Positions 4,720 through 40,650 of a DNA stretch of 40,981 nucleotides are shown piece by piece. This DNA comes from Escherichia phage J8-65. Where the stretch lies: the sequence record NC_025445.1. One strand, written 5' to 3'. The stretch's first letter is position 1; every line of letters starts with the position of its first letter. Both the position numbers and the translations under genes were made by a program. A model generated the notes under the pieces. That model made no database searches, was not told the origin of the DNA, and worked only from the letters and a program-made list of their open reading frames with translations.

Positions 4720-5235
4720 ATGGCTATTAACTTCGCAACATTTGACAAACAGCAGTTCGAAGTAACCAAACGTCTGGCCGCAGAGATTGACGAGCGCCCG
4801 GAAGTATCCGACGTGATTGAATTTCGTGGTGGCTTCCTGCCAAAGATGACGTACGTGGCAGCAATTAAGGCAGGCCGACTGGACATGGTGGATATCATCC
4901 CGCCGACCCGCACTGGTGCCATCATCGCACGCAACATCACACTGCTGGCTGGTCTCGGCACCAAGTCTCTGGATGCAGCAGGTGAAACAGAGCGTGCTGT
5001 TCAGCTCCGCATGGCGGCAACGTTGGCAATCCGTTTCGCATGTGAAGAGACGGTACACGCCAGCTACCACGACTGGTATCAGGCATGTGAGAATGTGCCT
5101 GCCGACCTGAGCGAGACGCACGCAAGTGTGCTGTTCGCTGGCGAGGTACTGGATGCCATGCTGCAACAGTTGAAGGAAGGACTGGGTGAGCTGCTGGCGG
5201 CGGCGAGCGAGGTGAAACGTGCAACGCTCCACTGA
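4720..5235 (+). CDS. hypothetical protein (171 aa)
   Basis: ATG start, tight packing with flanking genes. Confidence 0.6.
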   Translation: MAINFATFDKQQFEVTKRLAAEIDERPEVSDVIEFRGGFLPKMTYVAAIKAGRLDMVDIIPPTRTGAIIARNITLLAGLGTKSLDAAGETERAVQLRMAATLAIRFACEETVHASYHDWYQACENVPADLSETHASVLFAGEVLDAMLQQLKEGLGELLAAASEVKRATLH

Positions 5236-5239
5236 TTTA

Positions 5240-5392
5240 GTGGTGCGTAAATCACCCACTGGTAAACACTGGTGGGTGGTGTACGCTGACCTACCGGGCA
5301 GACCGTTTGCTGTCCGTGACACAAAGTGGCAGGCCGAAGCTAAGCGTGATGACCTGCAACGTATCGTAAACAGAATGGGAGTACCAGCATGA
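5240..5392 (+). CDS. possible small protein (about 50 aa, GTG start)
   Basis: open frame fills the gap between flanking genes and ends in ATGA overlap with next start; no clear RBS. Confidence 0.25.
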   Translation: MVRKSPTGKHWWVVYADLPGRPFAVRDTKWQAEAKRDDLQRIVNRMGVPA

Positions 5393-5631
5393 CCATCATC
5401 AAAGACGAAAGCAAACTCGAAGTCGGTTCCGCATACAAGCTGAGCGGCGGTGTGTTCTGTTCGGTTGCACTGGACGTGAACGCAGGCAAGTTCATCTTCA
5501 AAGGGCGTGACGAATACAACCCGGACATGCTGCACTTCGAAGGTGTTACCGATGGCCGGGCGCAGTTCTTGTACCCGGAGCGGCTGGCCGATGGGCAGTA
5601 TGATTTGTCCAAGGTTGAAACAATCAAGTGA
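5389..5631 (+). CDS. hypothetical protein (80 aa)
   Basis: ATG start, GGGAG upstream. Confidence 0.55.
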   Translation: MTIIKDESKLEVGSAYKLSGGVFCSVALDVNAGKFIFKGRDEYNPDMLHFEGVTDGRAQFLYPERLADGQYDLSKVETIK

Positions 5632-5663
5632 CTTACTCGTGGCATTTCGTGAGAGATGCCACC

Positions 5664-5903
5664 ATGAAAGTAACTGTATTGCACAACATCGGAGGAGATA
5701 TGCTCAAAGTAATATTGTTGTTCCTGCTTCTGGTAATTATTTGGGGAGCGTTATGGGTGGGTCTTGCATCACTGGTGCTTATCCCTGCGGTCGGTGAGTC
5801 AGCCACTTCAACACTGGGCACACTGCTCGGCATGTTGGTGGGCTGGGGTCTGATGCAGTTGAGCCTGAGTGTAGGCCAGAATCGGGGGTGGATTAAATGG
5901 TGA
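5664..5903 (+). CDS. small membrane protein with two predicted TM helices (79 aa)
   Basis: ATG 5664; VILLFLLLVIIWGALWVGLASLVLIPAV and LGTLLGMLVGWGLMQLSLSV hydrophobic segments. Confidence 0.55.
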   Translation: MKVTVLHNIGGDMLKVILLFLLLVIIWGALWVGLASLVLIPAVGESATSTLGTLLGMLVGWGLMQLSLSVGQNRGWIKW

Positions 5904-6337
5904 AGCCTAAGTATAAAGTCGGGGATGAAATCGTAGGCGACGAAGGCACTGGCACCCGGTCGGGTAAGCTGAGTATCATCGCTTGGGTTAACCCTGACCG
6001 CCGAGCGTGGGAGCGTAGCGGGGAGACTCGTTACATCGTGAGCTGGATTGGTGAGCGCCTGAATGCGCAGCCGGATATCAGCCACTACAAATCTGACTGG
6101 CTGGAAGAGAACACCAGTCTGGTCAGCACGCCAGCCGAGAAGCGCGGTCGGTTCATGTGCTTGGTCGAAGGCAGCAACGCGCCGCCGAAGGTTGAGCACA
6201 TCACTGAGCGCGAGGCGCGTGAAGAAGCTGAACGTCTGGCAGAGCGGTGCGGAGGTACTGTCCGTGTGCTGCAAGTTGTGGCCAGCGTGAAGATGAAGAA
6301 GAAGATTCTGTACACACCGGACTGGGATAACGAATGA
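5897..6337 (+). CDS. hypothetical protein (146 aa)
   Basis: ATG start overlapping upstream stop. Confidence 0.55.
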   Translation: MVKPKYKVGDEIVGDEGTGTRSGKLSIIAWVNPDRRAWERSGETRYIVSWIGERLNAQPDISHYKSDWLEENTSLVSTPAEKRGRFMCLVEGSNAPPKVEHITEREAREEAERLAERCGGTVRVLQVVASVKMKKKILYTPDWDNE

Positions 6338-7047
6338 GAAAGTCAGTGAGCAATGATGAGTGGCCGGAGCTGGCGAGGCGTCTGCCGATAGGACAAAAGC
6401 GTCGGACGTTTCACGCTTGCTCACGCTCATTCAGTAAGACCAACTTCGAGTATGGCCGGAACAGCGAAGGCGTGTGGTGCAAGTGCCATCGCTGCGGCCA
6501 TGCTGATTTCAAACCCCTCAACCATGCACCGTATGTACCGCCAGCCAAAGAGCAGGTGAAGATACCGGGCGACGTTGTTCCGCTTATCGAAGTGATAGCG
6601 AAGCAGCCCGGACTGCTACTGCCAGCGTTGGAGAAGTATGAGCTGCTGCCACACCTGAGCGTGCTGACTGCCAGCCCAACGTACGGGCGTATCTACTTGC
6701 CGGACAACTCGGCAAGCTACTGTGGTCTGGACTACACCGGGCGGCAGTTCATTCCGTGGCGCTCGCCACACAACCATCTAATGGCAGTGACAGTAAGTAA
6801 TCACGACGACGATGAGTTCAAAGGGATATGGATTTACGACAGCGCATCAGCATATCTCGACCACGTTCGTCGTGGTGACAGAGTGGATGGCAATGCAGCG
6901 TTCGTAGCCAATGCCGACGATGCCACCGTACGCGCTCTGGTTAGCGTTGTGCTGGCCAATCGTTATGAAGTGATATCATTGCAGCACCGACAGAGCGACA
7001 GGCTCAGGCGTGAGCTGAGAGTGTGTGGCAGGGTGCGAACAATATAG
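6334..7047 (+). CDS. putative primase-like zinc-ribbon protein (237 aa)
   Basis: C-x16-C-x-C-x2-C cluster (CSRSF...WCKCHRCGH); sits directly upstream of helicase as in T7-like primase-helicase modules; no clear TOPRIM seen. Confidence 0.45.
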   Translation: MRKSVSNDEWPELARRLPIGQKRRTFHACSRSFSKTNFEYGRNSEGVWCKCHRCGHADFKPLNHAPYVPPAKEQVKIPGDVVPLIEVIAKQPGLLLPALEKYELLPHLSVLTASPTYGRIYLPDNSASYCGLDYTGRQFIPWRSPHNHLMAVTVSNHDDDEFKGIWIYDSASAYLDHVRRGDRVDGNAAFVANADDATVRALVSVVLANRYEVISLQHRQSDRLRRELRVCGRVRTI

Positions 7048-16335: not shown

Positions 16336-16924
16336 GAAAGGTCAGAAGTTCTGTCTGGATATCAACCGCGAGTATCACGACAAGCTGCTCAATGAGCTGC
16401 GAGATAACGGTGCCATCCTGACATATGACGAGCCGTATGATGTACCCAACGACAGCAGGGATTATTACACCTGCGTCTACAACGGTAAGAAGATACTGCT
16501 GATACTGGAACCTTACGAGGTACAGGAAGTCGAGACGGCGTTCATCCCGGTTGACCCGTACGACCCTGCGCATGATGTTGAGGTGGCCGTGGCCAATAGC
16601 TCCGGGCCGGGCGGTATGAAGTATGATGGTGGCAAGCCACGCATGGCTCTGCTGTTCGATGGGTGCCCGAACGCACTGGCCGCTGTCGGCGAGGTGCTGA
16701 CGTTTGGCGCTCAGAAGTACGCTGCCCACTCGTGGCAGACTGTGCCGGAAGGTCAGGAGCGCTACAAGTCTGCGCTCATACGCCACCTACTGGCCGTGGG
16801 TAATGGTGAGGAACTGGATAGTGAATCTGGTCTGCACCATCTGGCCCATGCAGCGTGCAATGCGCTGTTCATTCTGGAACTGGAACTGAGGAAACGTAAT
16901 GAGTCGTTATCAAAAAGTGCTTGA
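16328..16924 (+). CDS. hypothetical protein, possible MazG-like all-alpha NTP pyrophosphohydrolase domain (198 aa)
   Basis: GGAGG RBS; C-terminal VGEVL...EELDSESGLHHLAHAACNALFILELE resembles MazG EExxE/D pattern; weak. Confidence 0.5.
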   Translation: MGKKGQKFCLDINREYHDKLLNELRDNGAILTYDEPYDVPNDSRDYYTCVYNGKKILLILEPYEVQEVETAFIPVDPYDPAHDVEVAVANSSGPGGMKYDGGKPRMALLFDGCPNALAAVGEVLTFGAQKYAAHSWQTVPEGQERYKSALIRHLLAVGNGEELDSESGLHHLAHAACNALFILELELRKRNESLSKSA

Positions 16925-17165
16925 TGATACAGTGGTTGATGGTAAAGTGTGCGGTGCCTGTCACGGCAGCGGCACCTTCCACAGTATGCTGATGAACAAA
17001 GAGATTGTGCTGTGCGAGTGTGAAGCCTGCGGCGGTACGGGTACGAGTGACCCGGTATTACAGCGGCAGGTGCTGTGTGAGTTGGGGCTGCGCAGTCAGG
17101 TACAGCCGGGCTACTCTGAACCTACGTTCATTGATGTGCCGAATAACAAAGACGATTACGAGTAA
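16899..17165 (+). CDS. small zinc-finger protein with CxxCxGxG repeats (88 aa)
   Basis: CGACHGSG and CEACGGTG DnaJ-like zinc-binding repeats. Confidence 0.55.
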   Translation: MSRYQKVLDDTVVDGKVCGACHGSGTFHSMLMNKEIVLCECEACGGTGTSDPVLQRQVLCELGLRSQVQPGYSEPTFIDVPNNKDDYE

Positions 17166-17174
17166 GGGGATGTG

Positions 17175-19604
17175 ATGGATTTGCTGGCAGAACAGATTCG
17201 ACTGGAAGAAGAGGCGCGTGCCCGTCACCGGGCAGGCTGGTTAGATAACGTACGAGATGCGATAGACTCAGGCCGCGCCTCGGCGGTGCCACTGTTGCAG
17301 CGAGCGATGGTTGAGGCATACCCCACTGTCGAAGCTGCAATGCTGGATATCCTGAACGAAACTACTCGTGGGTTCGGTGCGCAGTACCGCACGTATCTTC
17401 GTGAAGTTGGGGCCAAGACCTGTGCGTCTCTGGCCCTGAGCATGGCGGTGTCCGGCGCGACCGGGCGTACCGCCGTGACTCAACTGCTCCGCGAGATGGG
17501 GCAGGCAATGATGGCTGAGGTAGTCTATGCGAGAGCTGAGAAGGCTGGCAAGCGCGAGGCTGCGTACATGGAGAAGGTTCGCCGTGACGTGAACAAGTCC
17601 AAGTCCAAGTCGCCGAACCACATCTACAACAAGGCACGCGCTGCCTCAGCCAACGTTGGTGTCGAAACTGAAATCCTGCCACAGCGTGCGCTCATCACAA
17701 TCGGCAAGTTGATGATGCGTGCTGTCGAACCGACTGGTCTGGTCAAGACTGTCCGAGTCGGCGGTAGCTTGAAGAACCGGGCGACGGCGCACTTCGCTCT
17801 GCATGACGATGTGCTCATCATGCTTGAGGATTGGATGAAGCTGCCACACCTCGGCATCAACTGTTACCCACCGCTGATTGTGCCGCCAGCTCAAATCAAT
17901 GCGAATGGCTTCGGCGGTATGTGGCACTCTCCGGGGCAGGCAGCGACGTATGTGGCAATCAGCAAGCTCAAGCACCCGGCGTACCGTAAGTTAGGTATTG
18001 ACCCACTGCCAGTGATTGAGCCGTGCATGATGCTGTCGAGCGTTCCGTTCCGCGTGAACAAGATGGTGCTGGAGTTCCTGCAAGCCAACCGAACCGGGGT
18101 GATGGGGTTGCCTGTTGCGCCAGTAGAACCGAAGCTGCCGTTCACTATCCCGGAGGGCGTAACGTTCAGCCAGTACATCAGCAAGTTCCCGGCTGAGATG
18201 CAGCAGCGTATGGATGCTGAGGCACACGAGTTCAAGGTCAAGACTCGCATCTACCACAATGACATGAAGAAGTTCACCACGCAGATTCAGGCACTGAGCA
18301 GTGCGCTGCGCGAGGCTGAGCAGTACAAAGTGTACGAGCGAATCTACCTGCCGACGTACGCCGACACCCGTGGCCGTTGCTACTATGCCTCAGCCCTGAA
18401 CCCGCAAGGCATTGACGCAATTCGTGCTTTGCTTGAACTGGCCGACCCGGTGCCGTTGGGTAAGGAGGGTCTGTTCTGGTTGAAGGTTCATGTGGCCAAC
18501 TGCTTCGGCTATGACGCTACAGACTTTGAAGACAGGGCAGCGTGGACTGATAAGACAATGCCGCGACTGCGCGAGGCTTGCCGTCTGCCGGAGGCATACG
18601 ACTCGTTCTGGTCTGAGGCTGACAGCCCACTGTGTGCATGGGCGGCTGCGGTAGAGCTGGTGCGTGCGCTGGATAGCGGGAACCCGGAAGAGTATCCGTG
18701 CCGCGTGGTGACGCAATGGGATGCAACATGCTCAGGTCTGCAACATCTCTCCGCAATGCTGCGCGACGAGGTGGGTGGTGCTGCGGTCAACCTGATTGAT
18801 TCCGTAGGACGTAAGGCAGACATCTACGTTAAGACCGCTACAGCGGCTCTGGAGGCGTTAAAGGAAGCAGAGGCAACCAACCCTACGGTCTTGGGTTCGT
18901 GGCTCGTACAGACGGGCATAGAGCGCGGCATGGCCAAGAAGCCTGTGATGACTTATGTGTACGGTGCGACACGCCACGGCATGGTGGATTACTATGCTCT
19001 GTATTTGCGAGAGCACAACACTCCGCTGCCGGAAGGGTACACCCTGTTCCAGTGTGCAATGTACATCGCCGGGTTCATGTGGGATGCAATTCCTCGCGTG
19101 GTGCCGAAGGCTGCTGAGCTGATGGCGTGGCTGCAAGCTATCGCATCGGAGGCAGCGGCTAACGGGGAGTACGTGGAGTTCACTGCTCCGTCTGGTCTGC
19201 GCATGGTGAACATGTATCAGGCTCACAAAGAAACCACTATGGGTATCAAGCTGATGGGTGTTCATGCCATCAAGCTGCGCGAGTACATCGACAAGCCAGA
19301 CGGTCGCAAATGTGCGGCTGCGATTGCTCCGAATTTTGTACACGCGATGGATGCCAGCCACATGATGAAAGTTCTGTGGGAGATGTGGAATAACGGGATT
19401 TACATGGTGTCTATCCATGATTCATTCGGTGTTGCAGCGGCTCATGCAGGTCTACTGCACAAAGTCATCCGTGAAAAGTTCGTGCAGATGTACGAGGAAC
19501 ATGACCCGATTCAACAACTTGCTGTGAGATATTCTAAGGAAGCTCCGGCGCGGGGTCAGTTGGATATCAACGAGGTCAAGAAATCCTCCAAATTCTTCTG
19601 CTAA
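17175..19604 (+). CDS. single-subunit DNA-directed RNA polymerase, T7-like (809 aa)
   Basis: ATG 17175 after AAGGGGA; WDATCSGLQHLSAM, KKPVMTYVYGAT and SIHDSFG match T7 RNAP motifs A, B, C. Confidence 0.92.
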   Translation: MDLLAEQIRLEEEARARHRAGWLDNVRDAIDSGRASAVPLLQRAMVEAYPTVEAAMLDILNETTRGFGAQYRTYLREVGAKTCASLALSMAVSGATGRTAVTQLLREMGQAMMAEVVYARAEKAGKREAAYMEKVRRDVNKSKSKSPNHIYNKARAASANVGVETEILPQRALITIGKLMMRAVEPTGLVKTVRVGGSLKNRATAHFALHDDVLIMLEDWMKLPHLGINCYPPLIVPPAQINANGFGGMWHSPGQAATYVAISKLKHPAYRKLGIDPLPVIEPCMMLSSVPFRVNKMVLEFLQANRTGVMGLPVAPVEPKLPFTIPEGVTFSQYISKFPAEMQQRMDAEAHEFKVKTRIYHNDMKKFTTQIQALSSALREAEQYKVYERIYLPTYADTRGRCYYASALNPQGIDAIRALLELADPVPLGKEGLFWLKVHVANCFGYDATDFEDRAAWTDKTMPRLREACRLPEAYDSFWSEADSPLCAWAAAVELVRALDSGNPEEYPCRVVTQWDATCSGLQHLSAMLRDEVGGAAVNLIDSVGRKADIYVKTATAALEALKEAEATNPTVLGSWLVQTGIERGMAKKPVMTYVYGATRHGMVDYYALYLREHNTPLPEGYTLFQCAMYIAGFMWDAIPRVVPKAAELMAWLQAIASEAAANGEYVEFTAPSGLRMVNMYQAHKETTMGIKLMGVHAIKLREYIDKPDGRKCAAAIAPNFVHAMDASHMMKVLWEMWNNGIYMVSIHDSFGVAAAHAGLLHKVIREKFVQMYEEHDPIQQLAVRYSKEAPARGQLDINEVKKSSKFFC

Positions 19605-19687
19605 TTTAGTCTTATATTTCTTGCACTTAATGAAAGTAACTGTTCTGGTATACCCAGATTACTCTCGTAGTGCATTGGAGATTCTCT

Positions 19688-19870
19688 ATGAAAGACTCAC
19701 CATTAGACAGAGTGACGTTCAACAAAGGACAACTAGCTCTCTTAGAGAAAGCATTCGGTACATGGGAGAAGGTAGGGAAGACCATCACCCATGAATCAGA
19801 TATCTCACTACTGAATAGAGAAGCAGGTAAACAGGACGTGTTGGACTTCATCCGTGAAAGGACTGTGTAA
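19688..19870 (+). CDS. hypothetical protein (60 aa) in low-GC island
   Basis: ATG 19688 with GGAG RBS; atypical low-GC codon usage. Confidence 0.5.
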   Translation: MKDSPLDRVTFNKGQLALLEKAFGTWEKVGKTITHESDISLLNREAGKQDVLDFIRERTV

Positions 19871-20289
19871 TGAAAGTATCTGTAGTGGACAACATACATC
19901 ACACCACGATGCCAATCGACATTCGGATTGCTGTAGCCAAAGGTATACAGGAAGAACGCCAATGGTCTGATTTACCGTGGGATGTGATAGTAGACGCCAT
20001 GTATGATGCCACCGCCAACGGATGCACTGATGTGTATGTCCACGATTCTGACGGTGCTCTCATGGGCTGTGCTCATCTCGGTGAGCTGTTCGATATTCAT
20101 GTGGGGCCGTGTGCCGTTGTAATGGCTATGTATGTATGGCCCCAGTATCGCAACCGGGGAGTGACCCGTCTCATCCTCCGCGAACTCAAACGCGCTGCCC
20201 GGCAAGCTGGGTTGCGCTGGTGCGGTTACTCCCACATGGTACGTCCTTATGTTCAGGAATACCGATTCATTGATTTGGAGAAACCGTAA
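19870..20289 (+). CDS. hypothetical protein, possible GNAT-like fold (139 aa)
   Basis: VVMAMYVWPQYRNRGVTRLILREL resembles GNAT motif A region; low-GC. Confidence 0.45.
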   Translation: MKVSVVDNIHHTTMPIDIRIAVAKGIQEERQWSDLPWDVIVDAMYDATANGCTDVYVHDSDGALMGCAHLGELFDIHVGPCAVVMAMYVWPQYRNRGVTRLILRELKRAARQAGLRWCGYSHMVRPYVQEYRFIDLEKP

Positions 20290-22125: not shown

Positions 22126-23346
22126 ATGTCAGGTGAATACCAACCTACTGCCGCACCCGCTCCCCAAAACGTACCCGCTGGCCCGACCTATGCTCCCTCT
22201 GGTCACAGCGGTAATGATTATGGTGGAAGCCCACAGGTGGTACAGAACCCAGCGCTTGGTCGCTTAGGTACGCCGATTGAACTGCCTCGCGGCGGCGCAA
22301 CTCCGCAGCCTCAGCAGCCTTTCGCGCAGCCGGGCCTGATTCCAAATCAGGAGTACAACCCGTATGCCAACCAGTCGCAGGGAAATCCAAGCCCTTACGC
22401 ACCCGTACCTCAGCAGAACCCGTATGGTTCTCCGCAACCGCAGTCGCCGTACGCGGCACCACCTATTCCGATTAATGGGTATCCGCAACAGGGCTACACG
22501 CCTCCGGGCCAAGCGGCTCCGGCTCAGCAGTTCCAGCAGCCTGTAGCACCGCAGCCATATGCTTTCGACCCGTACGGTCGTCAGCCGGGCCAGCCACAGC
22601 AGCAGCCTCAGCAGCCGCAGCAGCAGACTCAACCTTTCCAGCAGTTGCAGCCGCAACAGCAGCCGCCTGTCCAGAACCAGCAGCTCACTGCTGACAAGCT
22701 GGCCAAGCAGGAAGGAGGTCTAACCCCGGAGCAGGTTGCACAGATTTTCCCTGACCAAACCAGTCAGGCAGTATTCCAAGGCATGGACACCATCGCCCGT
22801 GGCCAGAACATCGACCTGCTTGCAGCGTTCGGTCAGGCTTACGAGCGACGCGACCCGACCTTGGTGAACGACCGTTACCTTGCGCAGTTCGACCCGCAGA
22901 CCGTGGCTATCCTGAAAGGACAGTTCGGTGCGCTGGTAGCCGCAGGGCAGCAGCGCGATGCGCAGATTGAGCAGCAGGTGTACCAGATGGCTGGTGGCGA
23001 GCAACGTTGGAACCTCGCAGTACAGGCATTCAACACCGCAGCAGACCCTGCAACAGTCGATGCTGTCGTAGCAGCAGTGAACTCAGGCGACCCGAATCAG
23101 GTACGTCTGGCAGTGAACACCATCCTCCAGTTCACTGGTGCCCAAGGCAATATGATTCAACGTAGTGGTCAGAGTTTGACGCCCAATGGTGGCGGCCAAG
23201 CACCTCAAGAGGTGATGACCAATGAGGCTTTCCGTCAGCATCTTGGCTGGCTTGAGCAGGCGCACCCGGTTGGTTCCCCGGAATACAACCGTCACTATCA
23301 AGAGCTGGTAGAGAAGCGTCGTCAAGCCAAGGCTATGGGCTACTAA
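22126..23346 (+). CDS. scaffolding protein with P/Q-rich low-complexity N-terminal half (406 aa)
   Basis: position between portal and capsid; N-terminal ~190 aa Pro/Gln/Tyr-rich. Confidence 0.65.
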   Translation: MSGEYQPTAAPAPQNVPAGPTYAPSGHSGNDYGGSPQVVQNPALGRLGTPIELPRGGATPQPQQPFAQPGLIPNQEYNPYANQSQGNPSPYAPVPQQNPYGSPQPQSPYAAPPIPINGYPQQGYTPPGQAAPAQQFQQPVAPQPYAFDPYGRQPGQPQQQPQQPQQQTQPFQQLQPQQQPPVQNQQLTADKLAKQEGGLTPEQVAQIFPDQTSQAVFQGMDTIARGQNIDLLAAFGQAYERRDPTLVNDRYLAQFDPQTVAILKGQFGALVAAGQQRDAQIEQQVYQMAGGEQRWNLAVQAFNTAADPATVDAVVAAVNSGDPNQVRLAVNTILQFTGAQGNMIQRSGQSLTPNGGGQAPQEVMTNEAFRQHLGWLEQAHPVGSPEYNRHYQELVEKRRQAKAMGY

Positions 23347-39270: not shown

Positions 39271-39762
39271 ATGAAACTGTCTCGGCTATTGGCCGGGGCA
39301 GTCCTCTCATTGTCTCTGACTTTGACGGGCTGCTCCGCAACTAGCGCACTGTCTGCTGTAACTTCGGCTGTCTCTCCTAACAAGCCGGAACTGACGGCAC
39401 AGGTAGGTGCAGAGAACACGAAGCAAGGCATCGGTGTGACTGCGAAACAGTCCGACGAAACCGAAGTCGGTGACGTATCAGGTAACGCGAAAGTGGATAC
39501 CGCTAAACAGGGTAGTAACGCTACGACCGTCAAGGACGTTACAGGCGGCTCTGTAAACGCTTCTAAGCAGGGGTCTCAGATGACCCAAGGGAACGTACAG
39601 GCTAAGACTGTTATCGTCTCACAGAGCGACCCACGCAGCCTATTGTGGGCATTTGGCATGGGCCTTACGTGTATTCTTGGTTTGGTAATGTGGTTTGTAC
39701 CATCTCCGTGGAAGAGGAAGGTAAGAGATGACGGAAGCAAAACGAAAGGAGCCGACTCCTAA
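39271..39762 (+). CDS. candidate unimolecular spanin: lipoprotein with C-terminal TM helix (163 aa)
   Basis: N-terminal signal with lipobox LTLTGC; C-terminal LLWAFGMGLTCILGLVMWFV TM segment then basic tail; topology as phage T1 gp11. Confidence 0.55.
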   Translation: MKLSRLLAGAVLSLSLTLTGCSATSALSAVTSAVSPNKPELTAQVGAENTKQGIGVTAKQSDETEVGDVSGNAKVDTAKQGSNATTVKDVTGGSVNASKQGSQMTQGNVQAKTVIVSQSDPRSLLWAFGMGLTCILGLVMWFVPSPWKRKVRDDGSKTKGADS

Positions 39763-40114
39763 CATCCACTCGCGTATGGGTGCAGTGGAGGCTCGTATGC
39801 AGACCGTAGAACTACGCCTCGACAAACACGAAGTGCAAATCGCTAACCTTGAGAAAGGCGACGCTGCGATGCTCACGAAGCTGGCTGAGAACGACTCGCG
39901 CTGGCAGCAGGTTCAGCAGCAGCTCTTGGTGGTCGAGCAGATTCAGGATATCCAGAGAACTATGAGCCATATCGGTAAGTTGTTTACGGCGGCAGCACAC
40001 GCCGTCAAATGGTGCCTGTTAACCGCATCCCTGTGCAGCGGTGTGTATTTAGCAATTAAGGCTGGCGACCTCACAGCTCTCCAGTCCTTTATCACAAGCA
40101 TTATGGGGATGTAA
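39728..40114 (+). CDS. lysis-cassette membrane protein, candidate atypical holin (128 aa)
   Basis: GAGGAAGG RBS; ~85-aa coiled-coil-like N-terminus then one hydrophobic segment WCLLTASLCSGVYLAI; sits between spanin and endolysin. Confidence 0.45.
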   Translation: MTEAKRKEPTPNIHSRMGAVEARMQTVELRLDKHEVQIANLEKGDAAMLTKLAENDSRWQQVQQQLLVVEQIQDIQRTMSHIGKLFTAAAHAVKWCLLTASLCSGVYLAIKAGDLTALQSFITSIMGM

Positions 40115-40650
40115 TGACTAACTTTGAAATCTGTATGAAGTTCACCGGGCTGGCAGAAGGCGGGTACACCAAGCTGCCCGGTGACACTGGAGGGGAAACG
40201 AATCATGGAATTAGCGACGCTCGTGATGGCAAACTGGATGGCCGAATTTGTGGTGTCCCTACTGGGCTTGGTGGCTCTATTTGTGTGCCTGTCAAACAGC
40301 TCACCAAAGAGCAAGCCAACGCTATCTACCGGGCCGAGTATTTCGACCCCATCAAAGGTGACGAGCTACACCCTGCGATTGCATGTGCCGTGTTCGACTA
40401 CGGTGTCAACTCCGGTATCAGCCGTGCGGCGAAAGCTCTACAGCGGGTATGCGGCGTTGCACAAGACGGGGTTATTGGCCCTGCAACCGTGGCAGCAGCC
40501 AAACGTCTGGAACCTCACTCCGCAGCAGCATCCATCTGTGACCTTCGTATTGCGTTCCTAAAGGCTTCTACAGCCCCGACAATCGTTCGGTATAGGGATG
40601 CCTTGGTTGCCCGTGCAAAACGCTGTAGCGCGTACTGTGCGACGTTATAG
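40114..40650 (+). CDS. endolysin, GH108 muramidase with PG_binding_3-like C-terminal domain (178 aa)
   Basis: N-terminal LAEGGYTKLPGDTGGETNHGI matches the GH108 EGGY motif; C-terminal region resembles PG_binding_3; no N-terminal SAR/TM segment. Confidence 0.75.
   Translation: MTNFEICMKFTGLAEGGYTKLPGDTGGETNHGISDARDGKLDGRICGVPTGLGGSICVPVKQLTKEQANAIYRAEYFDPIKGDELHPAIACAVFDYGVNSGISRAAKALQRVCGVAQDGVIGPATVAAAKRLEPHSAAASICDLRIAFLKASTAPTIVRYRDALVARAKRCSAYCATL

Follow-up and report, generated by a model that had tools for sequence, protein, structure and literature searches.

TM67, a genus-restricted predicted membrane hairpin protein of Escherichia phage J8-65, and its possible role as an accessory factor

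The genome of Escherichia phage J8-65 (NC_025445.1; 40,981 bp, analysed in full and called the window here) contains a small gene, named TM67 in this study, which encodes a predicted two-transmembrane (TM) protein of 67 amino acids (aa). The reading that we favour, tentatively and at less than an even chance, is by analogy an accessory membrane-directed factor of the type of T4 Imm, a superinfection exclusion protein. The accessory behaviour of the gene, the strong divergence of its alleles and their free reassortment fit best a membrane factor directed at the host or at a competitor. The T4 imm gene lies in the region of DNA-metabolism genes, and its product is a small inner-membrane protein with two TM segments.

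In the proposed mechanism, TM67 would be made as the first cistron behind the promoter that opens the DNA-metabolism operon. Its very hydrophobic first helix (TM1) would pack on a glycine-zipper second helix (TM2) in the cytoplasmic membrane, with both termini in the cytoplasm, a turn of ~7 residues in the periplasm and a basic/aromatic tail at the inner interface. The protein might then act within the inner membrane of the already infected cell and block or modify a membrane step; the closest precedent would be Imm-type exclusion, which stops the genome of a second phage from crossing the inner membrane. The timing, the membrane orientation and the entire exclusion function are what we infer here from the results below.

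The TM67 gene and its predicted topology

Hydropathy was calculated on the Kyte-Doolittle scale with a 19-residue window (KD19), and insertion energy as the sum on the Hessa scale. The features of the gene and its product are as follows.

5700..5903, + strand: TM67 coding sequence (CDS) MLKVILLFLLLVIIWGALWVGLASLVLIPAVGESATSTLGTLLGMLVGWGLMQLSLSVGQNRGWIKW, 67 aa plus stop; annotated in relatives as a 66-67-aa CDS; ratio of nonsynonymous to synonymous substitution (dN/dS) 0.04-0.47
5691..5696, + strand: Shine-Dalgarno sequence GGAGGA, 3 nucleotides (nt) 5' of ATG 5700; GGAG/GAGG at the matching place in all relatives
5703..5789, + strand: predicted TM1, residues ~2-30; KD19 peak 2.88; Hessa sum -4.7 kcal/mol; stripe of V4, L7/F8, V12, W15, W19 and A23
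5784..5807, + strand: turn P29-x-x-G32-E-x-x-T36; P29, G32 and T36 invariant; charge -1 or 0; predicted periplasmic
5805..5861, + strand: predicted TM2, residues ~36-54; KD19 1.41; Hessa sum +3.7; invariant G40xxxG44xxxG48 plus T36 and M52
5874..5900, + strand: C-terminal tail GQNRGWIKW; G59, [RK]62, W64, [IV]65, [KR]66 and W67 conserved; net positive; predicted at the cytoplasmic interface

TM67 is located in a + strand open reading frame (ORF) of 5628..5903 with two in-frame ATG codons, at 5664 (79 aa) and 5700 (67 aa). Through tblastn we found homologues in 18 phage records, all Bonnellvirus, with identity down to 45%, and the gene was always directly upstream of a 146-150-aa gene and the primase. 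The length was 66-67 aa throughout the relatives, the frame was kept and the single indel was of 3 nt. dN/dS was 0.04-0.19 inside the allele classes and not above 0.47 between them. Judged by this conservation, TM67 is a real gene under purifying selection and not a chance ORF. All annotated relatives call a CDS of 66-67 aa at this locus, each deposited as 'hypothetical protein'.

A GGAG/GAGG sequence is found 4-9 nt ahead of the ATG equivalent to 5700 in every relative. Of the eight genomes examined, only three (the window, smaasur and Kc261) have the ATG at 5664 in an open frame with the gene; in megetsur a stop follows it, and altidsur, usur, Lidtsur and ROV85 have it in another frame. Its conservation can be explained because it is part of a conserved promoter motif described below, not because it serves as a start codon. 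The 79-aa form was therefore rejected, and from the comparison of start sites the true product is the 67-aa protein beginning at ATG 5700. An earlier note on this DNA (the original prediction) had given a protein of 67-79 aa, of which only the shorter form is retained.

The same note had described two strongly hydrophobic segments. This applies to TM1, which is the strongest hydrophobic segment among the real genes of the window, but TM2 is only moderately hydrophobic. The short basic C-terminus (QNRGWIKW) was found as described. Across the relatives, the N-terminus M-[LF]-[KR] carries a charge of +1, the turn -1 or 0, and the last 15 residues +1 to +3. This pattern follows the positive-inside rule, indicating a hairpin with both ends inside. 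AlphaFold2, run with a 10-sequence alignment, gave helices of residues 2-31 and 33-61 with a mean predicted local distance difference test score (pLDDT) of 88. The holin-like two-TM topology proposed earlier thus agreed with hydropathy, charge distribution and the AlphaFold2 model, and the predicted topology of TM67 is an N-in/C-in helical hairpin.

In each helix the conserved residues line up as a single stripe, and the turn and the tail are conserved too; the residue after G32 in the turn is [E/D/T] across the relatives. The stripes may most simply represent intramolecular packing of the hairpin, tryptophan on glycine. Outside the membrane there are about 20 residues in all and no soluble domain. 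The tail has 9-15 residues, without acidic residues, and forms no extended charged C-terminal domain.

Distribution and transcription context

A profile search of 1.84 billion representative proteins revealed only three genuine TM67 clusters, all from Bonnellvirus-type contigs with the same synteny. Three longer profile matches, to repetitive proteins aligned over short stretches, were treated as spurious. Neither a family match nor a holin model was obtained for TM67 in Pfam (E <= 1), PHROGs (E <= 10), NCBIfam (E <= 1) or PADLOC. According to these searches the family is restricted to Bonnellvirus. In the sister-genus phage LIMEzero, TM67 and the gene that follows it in the window (gp146) are both absent, and a terminator and a promoter abut the primase. 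In the divergent relative Logan ERR12379741_2275, TM67 is absent and the hairpin and promoter abut the gp146 homologue.

Two allele classes of TM67 were found, which are ~50% identical, while the core proteins are 85-95% identical. All four combinations of TM67 and gp146 allele classes occur. The window itself is a mosaic at 5700-7047 with sharp boundaries at the gene junctions: TM67 (99%) and the primase (97%) are of smaasur type, whereas gp146 (5897-6337) is of megetsur type, with 95% identity against 47% to smaasur. The TM67 distance matrix from 10 genomes was uncorrelated with that of gp146 (r = -0.02) and that of the primase (r = -0.05). In the comparison with every other gene the best r was 0.54, and the mean across all gene pairs was 0.58, giving no specific partner. 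TM67 would accordingly be a lineage-specific accessory gene, outside the core replication or lysis machinery.

A second two-TM family of 59-62 aa, unrelated to TM67, was observed just 5' of the RNA polymerase region (L018 28254-28433, L021 16897-17076 and L031 11777-11965). We found it in altidsur, usur, Kc261, ROV85 and glasur and, with a frameshift, in megetsur; the window (near 16900-17170), smaasur, Lidtsur and LF82-23 lack it. The relative without TM67, ERR12379741_2275, carries a 62-aa member. The basic loop of this family suggests a topology opposite to that of TM67. From its patchy presence, accessory membrane genes vary from phage to phage in this group. We also observed a LIMEzero-specific membrane protein of 53 aa, ORF35 (L030 583-744), encoded by the second gene past the late promoter, with a weakly hydrophobic N-terminal segment, a strong TM segment and an RWLRG tail. 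ORF35 is a candidate lysis or exclusion protein of the sister genus; as an analogue of TM67 it was rejected (hhalign probability 1.3%).

The window is a complete Bonnellvirus genome of J8-65/smaasur type (T7 supergroup; Autographiviridae, now Stentvirinae) with direct terminal repeats of 259 bp, and the TM67 region showed 91-94% identity with Escherichia phages smaasur, megetsur and mellemsur. Every gene of the window is on the + strand, in the order of early genes, primase/helicase, DNA polymerase, nucleases, RNA polymerase (17172-19604), structural genes, terminase and lysis genes. The elements around TM67 are listed below.

5639..5662, + strand: 10-bp hairpin GUGGCAUUUC-GUGA-GAGAUGCCAC, abutting the promoter; conserved, no U-tract
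5664..5679, + strand: phage-RNA-polymerase promoter-like motif ATGAAAGTAACTGTAT, which includes ATG 5664; start expected near 5679-5681
5897..6337, + strand: gp146 (146 aa, phrog_28324), with an overlap of 7 nt (ATGGTGA) between its ATG and the TM67 stop; also overlaps the primase start at 6334

The 14-mer ATGAAAGTAACTGT at 5664 has exact copies at 19630, which is 25 nt past the end of the RNA polymerase gene, and at 548-535 of the minus strand, and a copy with one mismatch at 19870. As the 16-nt motif ATGAAAGTAACTGTAN it occupies 5664-5679 (+), 19630-19645 (+), 19870-19885 (+) and 548-533 (-) in the window. Ten Bonnellvirus genomes all carry the pattern ATGAA[AG]G[TC]NNCTNT[AT] at three or four matching sites. 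Its variable bases change jointly within a genome: the window and smaasur have GTAACTGT, megetsur, altidsur and LF82-23 have GTGTCTATA, usur and Kc261 have GCTACTATA, and ROV85 and glasur have GTGACTATA. Such concerted change within a genome is expected of the promoters of a phage's own polymerase, and the repeated motif is therefore probably a promoter of the phage RNA polymerase. Its consensus, ...GTGACTATAG, resembles the core of the T7/SP6 promoters. The LIMEzero record annotates a 'putative phage specific promoter' at both equivalent sites, 5' of the primase and just 3' of the RNA polymerase gene. The copy preceding TM67 is a variant promoter, since it always ends in ...TAT followed by TGG and not in ...TAG followed by TGA. 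The copy at the left end (548-533, minus strand) is directed leftward, away from all genes and beside an AT-rich stretch (555-720); it could be an element of the origin or of end processing.

The hairpin showed strong covariation: among 10 distinct sequences 99% of cells were paired, six of the ten pairs had compensatory double changes, and none of 500 shuffles matched this. The fold z-score was -2.5. The LIMEzero record has a terminator annotation at the corresponding site, and the hairpin may serve in termination, in processing or in another role. Rfam gave no credible family over 5000-6500. A 12-mer around the hairpin, considered as a repeat, was not enriched, and the actual repeat is the 14-16-mer from 5664. 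Directly 5' of the hairpin there is an 80-aa ORF (5389-5631), seen in the window, smaasur, Lidtsur and contig L012 and absent from the other relatives; it is a variable cassette which closes the early region.

From this arrangement, TM67 would be the first cistron of a DNA-metabolism operon driven by the phage polymerase, with a leader of ~21 nt, so that ATG 5664 would lie upstream of the start of transcription. The protein would be made from mid-infection onward. The overlap between TM67 and gp146 is kept in all relatives, and TM67 is translationally coupled to gp146. The structure model of gp146 had a pLDDT of 65 and gave only generic matches to SH3/KOW-like barrels; the structure search found no PDB match at E <= 0.001, and a profile scan of IMG/VR found the window itself and two close relatives, with nothing further. 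The mapping of the promoter and hairpin provides a first transcription map for the genus.

Elsewhere in the window, two copies of GTTGACA-N17-TGTAATGC at 792-823 and 928-959 resemble strong early promoters of the host sigma-70 type, and the LIMEzero annotation has 'putative Pantoea specific promoters' at matching positions. Within the scaffolding-protein gene, CAGCCN/CAGCAG repeats at 22581-22666 encode a Gln/Pro-rich stretch.

The lysis cassette and the possible functions of TM67

A small lineage-specific membrane protein without assigned function would by itself be ordinary, as such proteins abound in phage genomes. The weight of TM67 comes from its context: no holin has been recognised beside the soluble endolysin and the u-spanin of Bonnellviruses and their sister genus (PMC6139136, PMC8402661), and TM67 is among only two or three membrane proteins of the genome that could contribute to lysis. 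At stake are how this phage group times lysis and whether exclusion proteins like Imm also exist in T7-like phages. The lysis cassette is composed of three genes.

39271..39762, + strand: u-spanin of the T1 gp11 family; phrog_1804, E = 6e-37; lipobox LTGC and C-terminal TM
39797..40114, + strand: gp105 in the holin slot (105 aa; 128 aa from 39728); phrog_35530; N-terminal coiled coil and C-terminal TM
40114..40650, + strand: endolysin with GH108 and PG_binding_3; PF05838, E = 1.5e-21; no N-terminal signal, signal-anchor-release (SAR) or hydrophobic segment

TM67 is ~33.4 kb from these genes (39271-40650), as far from the cassette as had been stated. The original prediction had also noted that the cassette lacks a canonical holin. 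This was correct in that there is no annotation and no member of the holin families was found anywhere in the genome, nor an annotated holin in any relative; however, the slot is filled by the conserved membrane protein gp105. The 163-aa u-spanin of J8-65 is listed by Kongari et al., who report J8-65 and LIMEzero as the sole phages with a T1-gp11-family u-spanin that are without a pinholin/SAR-endolysin cassette, and whose supplementary tables contain no holin call for J8-65 (PMC6139136). The protein in the window has the same length. The Kc261 paper identifies the endolysin only (PMC8402661). The C-terminal TM of gp105 had a KD value of 1.3 in the window, and the homologues in LIMEzero and two more distant contigs had 1.5-1.8. 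Against PF10779 (XhlA) all five aligned gp105 members matched below threshold, the best with E = 0.006 and 16 bits, where the cut-off is 34.7 bits. The position between spanin and endolysin is that in which KP34-like phages carry a holin (PMC4411677). gp105 is likely a holin or a holin component.

We also observed that a +1 frame within the endolysin gene (40181-40561, ~126-140 codons) has a strong TM-like segment and is open in ten of ten Bonnellvirus genomes and contig L033. It is longer than in synonymous-codon shuffles (P = 0.004-0.04). An embedded holin in this frame was nevertheless unsupported, since equally long +1 frames exist in other genes, no PHROG match was found, and the synonymous divergence of the endolysin in the overlap was not below that in the rest of the gene.

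The reading of TM67 as an Imm-type accessory factor, which takes up the superinfection exclusion raised by the original prediction, is supported by the occupied holin slot: spanin, gp105 homologue and endolysin are kept in this order in Bonnellvirus, LIMEzero (ORF54) and the two more distant contigs. Several points weigh against it. TM67 showed no similarity with Pfam Imm_superinfect (E <= 1) or with known exclusion proteins. An exclusion factor is expected among the immediate-early, host-transcribed genes, and TM67 would have mid rather than immediate expression because a terminator-like hairpin and a phage-polymerase promoter precede it and the polymerase gene is 11 kb downstream. Its presence in 18 of 18 isolates is more uniform than that of typical accessory genes. 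The one stripe per helix can be explained by hairpin packing alone, with no obvious face for binding a partner. Finally, the endolysin is soluble and the phage is without a proven holin.

In a rather doubtful alternative, TM67 would be the two-TM half of a split two-protein holin of the SPP1/PBSX type and the XhlA-like gp105 the other half. TM67 would stay harmless in the membrane from mid-infection, and gp105, made late, would time permeabilisation and the release of the soluble GH108 endolysin. An endolysin without signal or SAR segment requires a hole-forming holin, and no holin-family member was found in the genome. gp105 has the architecture of XhlA and SPP1 gp24.1 in addition to its sub-threshold PF10779 matches. 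TM67 is the sole small two-TM protein conserved across all Bonnellviruses, and its TM2 has a glycine zipper, a motif common among oligomerising pore formers. The XhlA-type proteins of SPP1 and PBSX depend on a two-TM holin, either partner being harmless alone and the pair lethal when co-produced; of the SPP1 genes, that of the two-TM holin is transcribed early, and the late XhlA-type one sets the tempo (PMC6316719). In the co-variation analysis gp105 and the u-spanin ranked 3rd and 4th of 37 genes, but r was ~0.5, lower than the genome-wide mean, and the rank is not decisive because the two genes are linked. The XhlA matches fall within the coiled coil, where spurious matches are frequent. TM67 itself matches no holin family, has a short tail in place of an extended charged domain, and is wholly absent from one relative; gp105 persists in LIMEzero and the two distant contigs, where TM67 is missing and no two-TM gene is called in the cassette. 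To our knowledge, XhlA-type systems are known only from phages of Gram-positive hosts. If true, which is just as doubtful, Bonnellviruses would lyse by a split holin of a type so far Gram-positive only, with the two-TM partner moved 33 kb to the head of the replication operon. The accessory, mosaic behaviour counted for the Imm-type factor is shared by an unlikely further alternative, that TM67 inhibits or hijacks a specific inner-membrane protein of the host (a component of the divisome or cell wall, a transporter or a membrane-bound defence) for takeover or counter-defence. Small phage membrane proteins which block division or cell-wall steps include SPO1 gp56 and phiX174 E. TM67 lies in a region of small lineage-specific genes, and its conserved intramembrane stripes could make a binding face, but we found no candidate target and no match in PADLOC or other families, and the allele class does not track the genus of the host: E. 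coli phages include both classes, and either class is also found in phages that infect other genera.

The last two explanations are both very improbable. As a stand-alone displaced holin or a classical antiholin, which the original prediction had raised, TM67 would have the size of a class II holin and the predicted N-in/C-in topology, in phages among which no relative has an annotated holin (including PMC8402661). Holins apart from the endolysin exist in some Autographiviridae, SP6 and JG068 (PMC3765740), but these are still in the late region. TM67, as the first gene behind a predicted middle promoter and 33 kb from the cassette, would risk premature lysis. It also has no conserved dual start, its tail is of just 9-15 residues without acidic ones, it matches no holin family, and gp105 fills the holin slot. 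With a chance just as slight, TM67 might tether the replication machinery (gp146, primase and helicase) to the membrane, which was the remaining role in the original prediction. TM67 is coupled to gp146 and gp146 to the primase, the TM67-gp146 overlap survives even the insertion of an HNH gene ahead of the primase, 3' of gp146, and the cytoplasmic tail is conserved. On the other side, the protein has no soluble domain and only the ~20 residues outside the membrane; the promoter-(gp146)-primase-helicase module is retained in LIMEzero and ERR12379741_2275, which lack TM67; TM67 alleles pair with either gp146 or primase class, consistent with the two near-zero correlations; and the gp146 model is mediocre, with its generic SH3-like matches.

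Comparison with known systems

The membrane proteins p16.7 and p1 of phi29 are, like TM67, encoded together with replication genes. They differ in having a soluble DNA- or protein-binding domain, which TM67 has not, and relatives that carry the same replication module do without TM67.

Class II holins and pinholins (phage 21 S21, T7 gp17.5 and phiKMV gp44) share with TM67 a size of 60-70 aa, two helices, the predicted N-in/C-in topology and a stripe of glycine or small residues in one TM segment. However, TM67 is without a dual start, its tail is much shorter and less charged, and it is not in the late region. A pinholin would moreover not suffice here, because the endolysin is soluble and not of SAR type.

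SPP1 gp26 and PBSX XhlB are also small two-TM proteins, and the possible XhlA-like partner in the window, gp105, is encoded beside the endolysin. They differ in that they have no homology to TM67 (Pfam, NCBIfam), in that TM67 is 33 kb from the cassette, and in that the host is Gram-negative.

T4 Imm shows no sequence similarity with TM67, and TM67 is behind a phage-polymerase promoter instead of an immediate-early host promoter. The two share a small size, two predicted TM segments and an inner-membrane location, which for TM67 is a prediction, and both are encoded by a virulent phage with the pre-late DNA-metabolism genes, away from the lysis genes. Among the small inner-membrane hairpin proteins of phages, TM67 is a new, genus-restricted family.

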